Below, in pieces: positions 8,116 through 24,165 of a DNA stretch of 39,611 bases; position 1 is the stretch's first letter, and the number at the start of each line of letters is the position of its first letter. The stretch is taken from the sequence record PV615262.1; one strand, given 5' to 3'. Under the pieces are notes generated by a model, which saw nothing but the letters and a program-made list of their open reading frames with translations, ran no database searches and was not told the origin of the DNA. A program made the translations under genes and the position numbers. This DNA comes from Acinetobacter phage vB_Aba_01KA.

Positions 8116-8168
8116 TAGACTCAAGGTCATTACTATATGTAGTGGCCTTTATGGTTAACACTAACTAG
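8116..8168 (+). promoter_or_regulatory. conserved RNA hairpin, probable RNase III processing site (R18.5-like)
   Basis: TAGACTCAAGGTCAT box; stem AAGGUCAUUAC/GUAGUGGCCUU with two G-U wobbles; same element recurs at 17371 and 24121 with compensatory changes. Confidence 0.5.
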
Positions 8169-8212
8169 TGGAGGCGACTCTACGTGAAATCTGATAAACC
8201 GGGAGGGCAACT

Positions 8213-8662
8213 ATGCTCGAATTTTTAAAGAGGGCGGCTCCGTGGTTACTTGCAGCAGTGATGTTTGCTGGTGGCTACCACACCGCTAACAATAAGTGGG
8301 AGGCTAAGGTCAATGAAGAATACACCTCGAATCTTAAGGCATCGGAGGATACAAGACTTGCTGTCCAAGCTGAAGTCAACAAAGTGTCCAAACGGTTTCA
8401 GGACGAAATGTCCTCGCTGGAAGGCAGCACTGATAGGATTATTGCTGACCTTCAGTCTGACAATAAGCGGCTGCGCATCCGAGTCAAACCAACGAGTGGA
8501 ACCACGCAAAGTGACGGTCGATGCGTCATTGATGGTTACGCCGAACTTGACGAACGAGATGCTAAACGTCTTATCGCCATCGGAGTGAAAGGAGACAAGT
8601 GGATTAAGGCACTTCAAGACACTGTGAGAGCCTTACAGCAAGATAAGGAGGTGACGCATTGA
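8213..8662 (+). CDS. i-spanin (Rz-like, T7 gp18.5 homolog)
   Basis: 149 aa, N-terminal hydrophobic segment ([12 protein letters not shown]) then charged coiled-coil-like region; syntenic between the terminase subunits; RBS GGGAGGG. Confidence 0.7.
8265..8588 (+). CDS. candidate o-spanin (Rz1-like lipoprotein, gp18.7 equivalent) embedded in the +1 frame of the i-spanin gene; true start uncertain
   Basis: Embedded ORF encodes ...[20 protein letters not shown], a lipoprotein-type signal with lipobox ISGC, followed by a short mature peptide; the N-terminal part of the listed ORF is probably not translated. Confidence 0.4.
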   Translation: MLVATTPLTISGRLRSMKNTPRILRHRRIQDLLSKLKSTKCPNGFRTKCPRWKAALIGLLLTFSLTISGCASESNQRVEPRKVTVDASLMVTPNLTNEMLNVLSPSE

Positions 8663-10420
8663 GTAAAGATTTAGTGGCGCGTCAGGCGCTAATGACAGCA
8701 CGTATGAAGTCAGACTTCGTGTTCTTCCTGTTCGTCCTGTGGAAAGCTCTGTCACTACCAGTCCCTACTCGCTGTCAGATTGACATGGCGAAGAAACTAT
8801 CGGCTGGGGACAACAGGCGTTTCATCCTACAGGCGTTCCGTGGTATCGGGAAGTCATTCATTACGTGCGCATTCGTGGTATGGAAACTGTGGAACAACCC
8901 AGACTTGAAGTTCATGATTGTGTCGGCATCAAAGGAACGAGCCGATGCGAACTCCATCTTCATCAAGCGCATCATCGACCTCATGCCTCAGCTTAGGGAA
9001 CTCAAACCTAAGCAGGGACAGCGAGATGCGGTTATCAGCTTCGACGTTGGGCCAGCCAAGCCAGACCACTCACCTTCGGTTAAGTCCGTTGGTATCACTG
9101 GTCAGTTGACTGGTAGTCGTGCTGACCTCCTGATTGCCGATGACGTGGAGGTTCCAAACAACTCAGCTACTCAGGCTGCCCGAGACCGTCTGTCAGAGCT
9201 TGTGAAAGAGTTCGACGCTATCCTGAAGCCGGGAGGTACAATCATCTATCTAGGTACTCCTCAGAACGAGATGACCCTGTACCGTGAGCTGGAAGGCCGT
9301 GGATACACCACTACCATCTGGCCCGCTCGCTACCCACGCGATAAGAAGGACTGGCAGTCTTACGGCGACCGTCTGGCTCCTATGCTTCAGGCAGAGCTGG
9401 AAGAGGACCCTGAGTCCTTCTACTGGCGTCCTACCGATGAAGTACGATTCGATGATACGGACCTGAAGGAACGTGAGCTGTCCTATGGTAAAGCTGGCTT
9501 CGCTCTACAGTTCATGCTTAACCCTAACCTGAGTGATGCCGAGAAGTACCCTCTGAAGCTCCGTGACCTTATCGTAGCAGACTTGGACCCAGCGTCTAGC
9601 CCAATGGTCTACCAATGGCTTCCTAACCCTCAGAACAAGCGTGAGGACGTTCCTAACGTTGGACTCATGGGTGACTCATACCACACGTATCAGACTGTAG
9701 GTTCTGCCTTCAGTTCGTACACCCAGAAGATTCTGGTCATTGACCCTAGTGGTCGTGGTAAGGATGAAACTGGTTATGCGGTACTGTATCAGCTCAACGG
9801 CTACATCTTCGCTATGGAAGTTGGCGGTATGCGAGGTGGCTATGAAGACTCTACGCTGGAAGCCTTAGCTAAGATTGGTCGTAAGTGGAAGGTCAACGAA
9901 TACGTCATTGAGGGTAACTTCGGTGATGGTATGTACCTTGAGCTATTCAAGCCTGTAGCTTCCCGTATTCATCCTGCTGCTGTAACTGAAGTGAAGAGTA
10001 AGGGTCAGAAGGAACTCCGCATCTGTGACGTTCTGGAGCCTATCATGGGGTCTCACCGACTTATCGTCAACGCTGCTGCTATCGTCCAAGATTACCAGTC
10101 GGCCTCTGATAAGGATGGTGTTCGTAACCCTATCTACTCTCTTCTACCAGATGACACGTATCTCTCGTGAACGTGGAGCATTGGCACACGATGACCGACT
10201 TGATGCGCTGGCTATCGGTGTACAGTTCTTCGTTGAGTCGATGGCTAAGGATGCCAACAAAGGCGAACGTGAAGTCACTGAGGAATGGCTGGAGGAACAG
10301 ATGGAGAACCCACGGAAAGGCTTCGAGTCCATCAACACGGAGTTCTGGGACAATGGGGTCCGGGTAACTCACGATACGGACGACGGGCTGGGACTAGGGT
10401 CCTACGTTACGTTCCACTAG
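8659..10420 (+). CDS. terminase large subunit (T7 gp19 homolog), one apparent frameshift near 10140-10170
   Basis: Strong colinear match to T7 gp19 ([75 protein letters not shown]); C-terminal piece 10025-10420 ([14 protein letters not shown]) is in another frame. Confidence 0.9.
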
Positions 10421-10430
10421 CTGAATGAAT

Positions 10431-10477
10431 AACTATAGGTGAAAACTGCATGAATACGCAGTTAGTAACCTATAGTT
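10431..10477 (+). other. nested perfect inverted repeat just after gene 19
   Basis: AACTATAGGT (10431-10440) and ACCTATAGTT (10468-10477) are perfect reverse complements; inner AACTGC/GCAGTT at 10444-10449 and 10458-10463. Confidence 0.5.
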
Positions 10478-10515
10478 ACTACCAGTCTAACCTACTGTTT
10501 TACAAGGAGTTTGGA

Positions 10516-10538
10516 CTTAACTATCACTATAGGGAAGA
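10516..10538 (+). promoter_or_regulatory. phage RNA polymerase promoter (phiOR-equivalent near the right genome end)
   Basis: CTTAACTATCACTATAGGGAAGA, consensus match; located after gene 19 as phiOR is in T7. Confidence 0.75.
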
Positions 10539-22154: not shown

Positions 22155-22172
22155 ACTATCACCTTAGGGATG
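22150..22172 (+). promoter_or_regulatory. phage promoter variant (CACCTTAGGGA core)
   Basis: CCTAAACTATCACCTTAGGGATG; two core mismatches, likely a weak promoter ahead of gene 4. Confidence 0.45.
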
Positions 22173-22222
22173 GGACAATGAGTCCTGTCCCTTTGTTCGC
22201 ATTTGTGACTAAGGAGTGACCA

Positions 22223-23921
22223 ATGTCATACGATGACCAAGACGACGAGAGTGTCTTTCTGTATCACACCCAGTGTCCAGACTGTGGGTCCTCGGATGCC
22301 AATGGTGTTTACTCAGATGGGCACATGTACTGCTTCGCCTGTGACCCTTCAGTCGCATGGAAGAAAGGAGACATGGAGTTGACCGAGGGATACACACCCT
22401 CAGGAGGTAAAAAGCAAGTGAGCAATCTGTTAACTTTCGGTGAGAACGCTGGACGATATGTCCCACTACCAGCCCGTAGTCTCAGCATGGAGATATGCAA
22501 GAAGTACAGCTACTGGGTGGGTAACATGGGCGGCAAGATGGTTCAGGTCGCTGATTATTACGACAGGTCCGGGACCAAGGTAGGACAGAAAGTCCGAGAC
22601 GCTGAGAAGAACTTCACGGCTATCGGAAGCGTCAAGTCTGACATGTTGTTTGGCTCACAGCTCTGGAACGGTGGTAAGAAGATAGTCATCACCGAGGGGA
22701 GATAGACGCTCTGTCTGTGGCTCAGGTGCAGGACGGTAAGTATCCTGTGGTCTCTCTTCCGTTAGGCGCTAAGTCTGCGAAGAAAGCGATGGCTGCTAAC
22801 CTAGAGTATCTCGACCAGTTCGAAGAGATAATCTTGATGTTCGACATGGATGAACCGGGTCGTCAGGCCATTGAGGATGCAGCTCCAGTCTTACCAGCAG
22901 GTAGGGTTAAGGTAGCATTCATCAACGGGTACAAAGACGCCAACGCTGCGCTTCAGGCCAAGGACTTCAAGGCCATCACCGATGCTATCTGGAACGCTAA
23001 ACCTTTCGTCCCGGCTGGTGTGGTATCAGCAGCAAGTCTGAAGGACCGCACACGAGAGGCAATGCTTAAGGCAGAGACTGAAGGTCTCATGTTCTCGTCA
23101 TGCACAACACTCAACGCGATGACCCTCGGTGCGCGAGCTGGTGAGCTTATCATGGTGACTTCAGGGTCAGGAATGGGTAAGTCTACCTTCGTCCGTCAGC
23201 TCCTCTTAGAGTGGGCAGAGGTGGTAAGCGTGTGGGTATGGCTATGCTCGAAGAGGCTGTAGAGGAAACAGTTCAGGACCTTATGGGTCTGGACAATAAC
23301 GTCCGTCTACGCCAGAGCAAAGAACTGAAGCAAGCCATCTTAGATGATGGACGGTTCGACGAATGGTATGACAAGCTGTTCGGAGACGATAAGTTCCACC
23401 TGTACGATTCATTCGCCGAGTCAGAGGAAGACACCTTGTTCGCTAAGTTGGCCTACATGGTGGACGGTCTCGACTGTGACGTCATACTGCTTGACCACAT
23501 CTCAATCGTTGTGTCTGGCATGGAAGATAACTCAGATGAACGTAAGACCATTGACCGCATCATGACTCGTCTCAAGAAGTTTGCGAAGACGAAGGGTGTG
23601 GTTGTCGTTGTCATATGTCACCTGAAGAACCCAGAGAAAGGTAAATCGCATGAAGAAGGACGACCTGTTTCAATCACTGACCTACGTGGTTCTGGTGCTC
23701 TACGCCAACTATCTGATACTATCATCGCACTTGAACGTAACCAGCAAGGTGATACTCCTAACGTTGTTCAGCTTCGTCTACTCAAGTGTCGCTTTACAGG
23801 TGATACTGGAGTGGCTGGACACCTCGAATACAACAAGACGACAGGGTGGCTCGAACCGATTAGCTTCACTGGTAGCAGCGGAGAAGAGGATAGCGGCTCG
23901 TGGGAAGACCAAGACTTCTGA
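22223..23921 (+). CDS. DNA primase/helicase (gene 4), two apparent single-G deletions
   Basis: Zn-ribbon CPDCGSSD...CFAC, primase and helicase motifs ([29 protein letters not shown] Walker [47 protein letters not shown]) colinear with T7 gp4; shifts in G runs near 22700 and 23215. Confidence 0.9.
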
Positions 23922-23936
23922 TTATGAGAAGTATAA

Positions 23937-24119
23937 ATGGAGGGTTCCATTCTAATGTTACGAAAACTTAAAGCTCGCTACCATCGGTTCATGTACAAAT
24001 GGTGGAGTGACGAAGCAACCTGCCTATCCAACATTCTGGGAGACCAAAGGTTCGACTCCGAGGCATGGAAGAAAGCTAACCGGAAATTCATGTACCACTT
24101 CTTGCGTACAGACTTCTAG
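23937..24119 (+). CDS. hypothetical protein (60 aa; alternative start 23955)
   Basis: GGAGGG RBS before ATG 23955; position of T7 genes 4.3-4.7. Confidence 0.4.
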   Translation: MEGSILMLRKLKARYHRFMYKWWSDEATCLSNILGDQRFDSEAWKKANRKFMYHFLRTDF

Positions 24120-24120
24120 G

Positions 24121-24165
24121 TCTAGACTCAAGGTCATTCACAGCGAGTGGCCTTTATGATTAGAC
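24121..24165 (+). promoter_or_regulatory. conserved RNA hairpin, probable RNase III site (R4.7-like)
   Basis: TCTAGACTCAAGGTCATTC-ACAGC-GAGTGGCCTTTATGATTAGAC; third copy of the box, with compensatory stem changes. Confidence 0.5.

Follow-up and report, generated by a model that had tools for sequence, protein, structure and literature searches.

The window analysed here, the 39,611-nt sequence recorded for Acinetobacter phage vB_Aba_01KA (PV615262.1), carries between its genes a family of structured RNA elements that are very probably processing signals that the T7 group of phages has inherited from a common ancestor and that serve the double-strand-specific endoribonuclease RNase III of the host. 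The family comprises at least six canonical signals, and probably eight members when two candidates of non-canonical build are counted. The 39.6-kb window is a whole Kayfunavirus genome, that is, of a K1F-like phage of the T7 group, given in circularly permuted order: over a 12-kb stretch, identity amounts to 99.9% with Escherichia phage vB_Eco_1RS and to 92 to 95% with many other Kayfunavirus phages. Its first 11 kb hold tail and lysis genes, the terminase and the genome ends, and the early genes follow from about 11.8 kb, window position 11795 corresponding to position 706 of K1F (NC_007456).

A repeated two-helix RNA element

A first-pass annotation of the window had described three hairpins sharing a sequence box, with a 10-11 bp stem, G-U wobbles at the same two stem positions, and apical bases that differ between the copies while staying complementary. 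Direct reading of the sequence finds all three hairpins in place. The box, the 15-mer TAGACTCAAGGTCAT, occurs exactly three times in the window (8116, 17372 and 24123), in each case on the + strand; when as many as three mismatches are allowed, the matches number 12 against 1.22 expected, a count reached in 0 of 100 shuffles. Each copy forms an upper stem of 10-12 bp beginning AAGGUCAU/GUGGCCUU, in which AAGGUCAUUAC (8123-8133) pairs with GUAGUGGCCUU (8139-8149) over 11 bp, AAGGUCAUGAC (17379-17389) with GUCGUGGCCUU (17395-17405) over 11 bp plus a possible U-A pair, and AAGGUCAUUC (24130-24139) with GAGUGGCCUU (24145-24154) over 10 bp. All three copies have a U·G wobble at stem position 5 and again at position 8, and the apical pairs read UAC/GUA, GAC/GUC and UC/GA in the same order, precisely as had been described. 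Upon RNA folding, all three gave a stable hairpin, with energies of -23.4, -20.2 and -21.5 kcal/mol and z scores against dinucleotide shuffles of -3.6, -3.9 and -3.3 for 8116, 17372 and 24123, respectively.

The hairpin is, however, only the upper half of the element. Beneath each of the three lies a lower stem of 7-9 bp whose strands covary between the copies (GUGUUAG/UUAACAC, AGGAUUAG/UUAACCCU and GGUCUAG/UUAGACU), and an internal loop, with 4 nt (ACUC) on one side and 5 nt (UAUGA-like) on the other, parts the lower from the upper stem. The three copies first described belong to a canonical family of six with a two-helix build. The accompanying argument from apical covariation was thin as long as it drew on these three paralogues alone, which offer two doubly compensated pairs, and becomes robust once the lower stem and the homologues considered below are added.

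The larger family came from a covariance model, here called R1, whose training set consisted of seven T7 sites and the four window copies that stood out most clearly. The RNAalifold consensus of this 11-sequence alignment consists of 9 bp, a 4/5 loop and another 9 bp, with double-sided changes at 10 of the 18 pairs. Run with filters off, model R1 finds six sites in the window at 31.5-65.9 bits, the next match scoring 18 bits (Table 1); the T7 and T3 sites score 36-67 bits, and the window sites lie in or near that range. In K1F, the model finds all six again, their order relative to the genes unchanged and four of them identical or nearly identical in sequence, and in T7 it recovers R6.5 (18500-18574), which had been held out of training. 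As a test set we took the stem-loops curated as 'RNase III recognition site' in the T3 record (NC_003298), none of which was used for training. At E <= 0.01, T3 yielded eight matches, every one of them a curated site (R0.5, R4.7, R1.1, R18.5, R0.3, R1, R1.3 and R6.5), and no match outside the curated sites; the model missed R3.8 and R13, whose architecture differs, and so recovered 8/10. A search of the whole window with Rfam 15 (4227 models, gathering thresholds) returned no match, and the R1.1-class element appears not to be represented in that release.

Near-matches to the box at 11416, 14514 and 31957 and on the minus strand were rejected as chance or unrelated: they have neither the fold of the element nor a model score, and near-matches of this sort folded with z = -0.1, +0.3 and, with a different fold, -2.2. 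The one at 31957-31971 is a partial box, TAGACTCAAGGTTTT, in the promoter leader before the major capsid gene and is without an RNase III-type fold.

Table 1. Predicted RNase III signals, further candidates and the promoter abutting the R1.1-type site (window coordinates; bits and E values from model R1; ^ marks the predicted cut)
Feature	Position	Strand	Score or fold	Predicted cut	Remark
R18.5 equivalent (8116 copy)	8108-8168	+	65.9 bits, E = 1.7e-14	after U8152 (UAU^GG)	
R1.1 equivalent (17372 copy)	17364-17424	+	63.2 bits	after U17408 (CAU^GA)	
R4.7 equivalent (24123 copy)	24115-24173	+	63.3 bits	after U24157 (UAU^GA)	
Fourth canonical site, R0.5-like	13122-13181	+	54.1 bits, E = 2e-11	after A13165	GAGUGAUAGAC...GAUUACCACUU
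Fifth canonical site, R0.3 equivalent	12120-12178	+	42.1 bits, E = 2.7e-8	after U12162	diverged
Sixth canonical site	11795-11860	+	31.5 bits, E = 1.5e-5	after U11844	most diverged; longer upper hairpin
R3.8-type candidate	22166-22200	+	z = -3.1		11-bp hairpin
R13-type candidate	36569-36647	+	-27.8 kcal/mol, z = -3.8		12-bp stem AAGGGCCUAUAG/CUAUAGGCCCUU
K1F-type phage RNA polymerase promoter	17345-17369	+			...AACTATCACTATAGG; +1 at about G17368; abuts R1.1-type site

Homology and synteny with the sites of T7 and T3

The T7 regions of R1.1, R0.5, R0.3, R1, R1.3, R4.7 and R18.5 align with the window copies and share with them the core CUCAAGGUC(A/G)...GUGGCCUU(U/C)AUGAUU (CUCAAGGUC...GGCCUUUAUGAUU). 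T7 R1.1, the standard substrate for RNase III in vitro, is a 60-nt RNA from between genes 1.0 and 1.1 with an asymmetric 4-nt/5-nt internal loop that is cleaved by RNase III both in vivo and in vitro (PMC6121014), and the window consensus has the same 4/5 internal loop and the same two-helix fold. Copies 8116, 17372 and 24123 have eight loop-proximal upper-stem pairs in common with it, and copy 24123 has all ten: T7 R1.1 reads ACUCAAGGUCAUUCGCAAGAGUGGCCUUUAUGAUU and this copy ACUCAAGGUCAUUCACAGCGAGUGGCCUUUAUGAUU, with the same 10-bp upper stem and a difference in the loop alone. By this likeness, all three copies should inherit the reactivity of R1.1, signals of the R1.1 class being expected to lack the proximal-box and distal-box antideterminant base pairs of the Zhang and Nicholson rules.

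The first-pass annotation had also placed its three hairpins where T7 has R18.5, R1.1 and R4.7, an assignment that the flanking genes and the curated T3 features bear out in every case. Relative to genes 0.3, 1.1, 5 and 18.5, the T7 and window sites occupy the same intergenic positions; in T3, as in the window, gene 5 is immediately preceded by R4.7, and R18.5 falls between genes 18 and 18.5. The site at 17364 matches T7 phi1.1A/R1.1 and T3 phi1.1/R1.1 together with its upstream promoter, the T3 promoter overlapping R1.1. Beyond their synteny, the window sites share homology of sequence with those of T7.

The sets of sites nevertheless differ. The window has six canonical sites and T7 seven or eight. 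Unlike T7, the window has no site before gene 1, where phage promoter 14037 is found instead, nor before gene 1.3, whereas T7 lacks the additional early site that the window carries ahead of an open reading frame (ORF) of 84 amino acids upstream of gene 0.3. Apical loops and lower-stem sequences also differ between the window and T7. T3 has R1, R1.3 and a canonical R6.5, none of which the model finds in the window. As for the remaining T7 sites, the coordinates that we take to be those of R0.7, R3.8, R6.5 and R13 gave no alignment to the canonical motif.

Covariation and strand specificity

Homologous loci were gathered by an exact-pattern scan of viral contigs, mostly of about 38-45 kb, with 80 of at least 120 matching stretches listed. 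Model R1 found 156 sites in the listed loci, of which 150 were aligned and 115 are distinct; since a portion of the upper-stem box served as the exact pattern of the scan, conservation of the upper-stem core is partly by construction. Among the 115 distinct homologues, which come from T7-like viral contigs, 93.9% of cells pair, compared to 78.4% in shuffles; double-sided changes occur at 16 of the 18 pairs, and on none of five measures did any of 500 shuffles come as high. When the 3' partners were slid by 1-3 columns, pairing was only 26-50%, and RNAalifold, predicting unaided on the homologues, recovered both helices. The parts of the element that were free to vary behave alike: double-sided changes are seen at 9 of the 9 lower-stem pairs, and CG stands at the apical pair in 64 homologues and UA in 45. 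The proposal that covariation argues for a conserved functional RNA structure is thereby supported well beyond the three copies from which it arose.

The structure is also specific to one strand. At 6/6 sites, folding favours the sense over the antisense strand by 2-12 kcal/mol (for example, -23.0 versus -10.8 kcal/mol at 12120-12178), and the site at 8108 scores 65.9 bits in sense and 12.8 bits in antisense orientation. One-sided changes from G-C to G·U are frequent among the homologues (40/115 and 43/115 at two pairs), and the K1F orthologue of the site at 13122 (K1F 1765-1824) has one-sided changes that keep the pairing, such as GGUCAUC to GGCCGUC. The conserved U·G wobbles, which would be A·C mismatches on the other strand, the strand asymmetry and the one-sided changes all argue that the conserved structure is RNA, formed by the sense strand.

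These observations bear directly on a different reading, in which the elements are palindromes acting at the DNA level: as single-stranded DNA hairpins or cruciforms used by a replication origin, as sites of recombination where phage modules join, or as structures that host defence senses. Any RNA structure would then be incidental or secondary. There is precedent in that a palindrome of a T7 RNase III site, on a fragment of the primary origin, and similar palindromes of a T7-like vibriophage trigger DdmABC (Lamassu) restriction in Vibrio in either orientation (PMC11707656). In the window, the site at 17364 stands at the place of the T7/T3 primary origin region, and homology to Klebsiella phages starts at the promoter plus hairpin (query position 59), suggesting a module boundary. 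A DNA palindrome does not, however, account for wobbles and an asymmetric loop that make the complementary strand fold 2-12 kcal/mol worse, for copies that are all strictly intergenic and oriented with transcription, or for one-sided G-C to G·U changes, which keep RNA pairing and not DNA pairing. A side effect at the DNA level is conceivable, yet it would leave this pattern of conservation unexplained, and we regard the DNA-level reading as very unlikely. A mixed scenario, in which the palindromes act on DNA as well (as hairpins sensed by Lamassu/DdmABC or as module-exchange junctions), is also unlikely, if somewhat less so. Were a DNA-level role to hold, the elements would be under two layers of selection. 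Separately, RNase III might act on these sites unstimulated in K1F-like phages.

Transcript context and predicted processing

All six canonical sites are intergenic, have the same orientation as the genes and begin at or just past a stop codon. The R18.5 equivalent starts at the stop of gene 18 (7848-8111; Pfam DNA_Packaging_2), ahead of gene 18.5/Rz (8213-8662, ATG 8213), and is identical to K1F 36445-36505. The R4.7 equivalent comes after the gene 4 region and, gene 4.7 being absent, directly before gene 5 for DNA polymerase (ATG 24183); its K1F counterpart is 12852-12910, ahead of gene 5 at 12921. The R1.1 equivalent begins at or just upstream of the +1 of its promoter (G17368) and is 35 nt upstream of the ATG of gene 1.1 (17444), with genes 1.1 (Pfam Phage_1_1) and 1.2 (Pfam T7-like_gp12) following. 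The motif of this phage promoter recurs on the + strand before genes, with 8 exact occurrences and 11 at <=2 mismatches. In three sites, the 3' strand of the lower stem plus flank (17411-17424, 8155-8168 and 11847-11860) reads UUAACCCUAACUAA, UUAACACUAACUAG and UAGUCACUAACUUA, respectively, and resembles the upstream promoter half TTAACCCTAAACTATCAC (17347-17363) minus one A. This might be a decayed second promoter, compare phi1.1B after R1.1 in T7, or a coincidence of stem constraints.

Three sites lie close together in the early region. The most upstream, at 11795, is the first site of the early transcript and precedes the 84-amino-acid ORF (11867-12121); its K1F orthologue is 706-771, and a promoter scan places a sigma-70-like promoter (10/12 matches) upstream of it at 11652-11681. 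The site at 12120 is directly upstream of the ocr gene 0.3 (ATG 12194; Pfam ocr match) and has its K1F orthologue at 1029-1088. The site at 13122 folds at -20.1 kcal/mol (z = -2.9), overlaps the stop codon at 13123-13125 and lies 31 nt upstream of an ATG at 13197. In the near-identical record PV615263, the coding sequence (CDS) UCOFXGHD_0054 (window 13126-13269) begins inside this hairpin; the ATG at 13197, for which GAGG is the Shine-Dalgarno sequence, is the start more in keeping with how the other sites are laid out. A hairpin with a U-run at 18982-19009, after the ligase gene, forms a TE-like terminator. Promoter 11652-11681 and this terminator together place four sites in one early transcript of the host polymerase, as in T7; the other two belong to class II and class III transcripts.

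From this layout and the known behaviour of RNase III, we propose the following course of events. Each element would be transcribed within a long polycistronic mRNA, the early one made by host RNA polymerase from sigma-70-type promoters at about 11.3-11.7 kb to the terminator at about 19.0 kb and the later ones from phage promoters. The RNA would then fold into two coaxial helices, 7-9 bp below and 9-12 bp above the 4-nt/5-nt loop, amounting to about two helical turns, and RNase III would bind this quasi-continuous helix. Owing to the loop, the cut would be confined to a single strand, on the 3' side of the loop, with a predicted consensus of UAU^G; the individual positions in Table 1 follow from alignment to the T7 sites, that of the 8108 site from T7 R18.5. 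In the R1.1 variant R1.1[WC], whose internal loop is changed to Watson-Crick pairs, both strands are cut. The upstream mRNA would be left with the upper-stem hairpin at its 3' end, shielding it from 3' exonucleases, while the downstream mRNA would start 22-60 nt before the next start codon. Both ends of this scheme have precedent, as RNase III recognizes about two helical turns, internal loops confine it to one phosphodiester, and the 3' hairpins left behind protect the RNA (PMC1540722, PMC3867540). That the RNase III of E. coli cuts these RNAs, at which exact phosphodiester it does so, and the effects on mRNA stability and translation are inferred.

Several points weigh against this interpretation or soften it. 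We found no experimental processing data in the literature for this phage or for K1F-like phages. The sites at 11795 and 12120 are diverged and read UGACU^GAUA instead of UUUAU^GAUU. Placement of the cuts relies on T7 coordinates that Dunn and Studier are said to have reported in 1983; the sole cross-check is that these coordinates fall at one position of the motif, after AU and before G, in 7 sites. Finally, the T7 gene 0.7 kinase stimulates RNase III (PMC4858673), and K1F-like phages, unlike T7 and T3, have no such kinase gene, the stretch 12691-14125 holding small ORFs only, so that the efficiency of processing may differ from that in T7.

Their location 22-60 nt upstream of start codons could also suggest that the elements are operators, bound by an RNA-binding protein other than RNase III that controls downstream translation, all the more as the lower stem of the R13-type candidate sequesters a Shine-Dalgarno sequence. 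The canonical sites, however, do not pair with Shine-Dalgarno sequences, and we know of no candidate protein. Their core is a biochemically established RNase III substrate (PMC1540722, PMC6121014), and operators are extremely unlikely. That the elements separate genes by terminating or attenuating transcription by the host or phage RNA polymerase has a next to negligible chance despite their stable, intergenic hairpins, as no copy is followed by a U-run (the 3' flanks being AACACUAACUAG, AACCCUAACUAA and AGACUAAACGG), a terminator scan of 10900-11900 flags nothing at the site at 11795, while 18982-19009 was flagged, the essential downstream genes (18.5/19, 1.1-1.3 and 5) need read-through, and annotation of the T7 and T3 homologues names them as processing sites, not terminators.

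Candidates of other architecture

Besides the canonical RNase III signals, two structures resemble the T7-group sites of different build (Table 1). The hairpin at 22166-22200 forms the 5' end of the transcript from promoter 22154, upstream of the primase/helicase gene, with the conserved CCCUUUGUUCGCAUU coming next. The T7 phi3.8 leader can be aligned with it, and so can the curated T3 'RNase III recognition site R3.8', likewise a leader hairpin before gene 4. By this resemblance the hairpin is a candidate R3.8-type site.

The structure at 36569-36647 is identical in K1F and was not scored by the covariance model. Its loop holds phage promoter 36603 and its lower stem takes in the Shine-Dalgarno sequence of gene 13, an arrangement that means the structure can only form in transcripts reading through from upstream. 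Such a promoter-in-loop design is common to T3 R13, T3 R6.5 and T7 R6.5, and its architecture makes the structure a candidate R13-type site. Around promoter 28053, we saw no significant fold (z = -0.9) and no model match that would point to a promoter-enclosing site of the R6.5 type.

One further structure is of yet another kind. At 30916-31006, in the leader of promoter 30895 and before the scaffold gene 9 (at about 31042), lies a hairpin of great length and nearly perfect pairing (141 nt folding at -63.3 kcal/mol, z = -7.3), over which a small 'hypothetical protein' CDS is annotated in PV615263. The corresponding place in K1F holds another structure, a weaker one, and no more than 13 phage records carry the element in full, their hosts being in Citrobacter, Enterobacter, Providencia, Klebsiella and Escherichia. 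It could be a long double-stranded RNA substrate of RNase III, a stabilizer or an inserted palindromic cassette.

Annotation and genome context

The six canonical elements are orthologues of a textbook class of regulatory RNA in T7 and T3, which makes the finding correct but ordinary; its main value lies in annotation, and the understanding of RNase III and of T7-group biology is unchanged by it. Annotation of these RNase III sites is absent from the K1F RefSeq record and from the near-identical vB_Eco_1RS record, and in the latter some small "hypothetical protein" CDSs overlie structured non-coding leaders. With 8/10 T3 sites recovered and no false positives, model R1 could be used to annotate such sites across the Autographivirales. 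Knowing where they lie also helps to predict mRNA species and their stability in K1F-derived therapeutic or engineered phages.

Two further observations concern the large genes of the window. Several essential ones, namely, those for RNA polymerase (14125-16804), terminase, DNA polymerase, primase/helicase, ligase and gp16, are split into overlapping ORFs. The RNA polymerase gene is in at least five pieces here and likewise in PV615263, whereas it is a single CDS in K1F, which points to indel errors of sequencing or assembly and not to biology. About 75 nt upstream of the RNA polymerase gene, at 14037-14051, there is an exact phage-type promoter, whereas the T7 and T3 records have only an E. 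coli promoter (C) annotated at the corresponding position. As read from its sequence, promoter 14037-14051 would allow the phage polymerase to transcribe its own gene.

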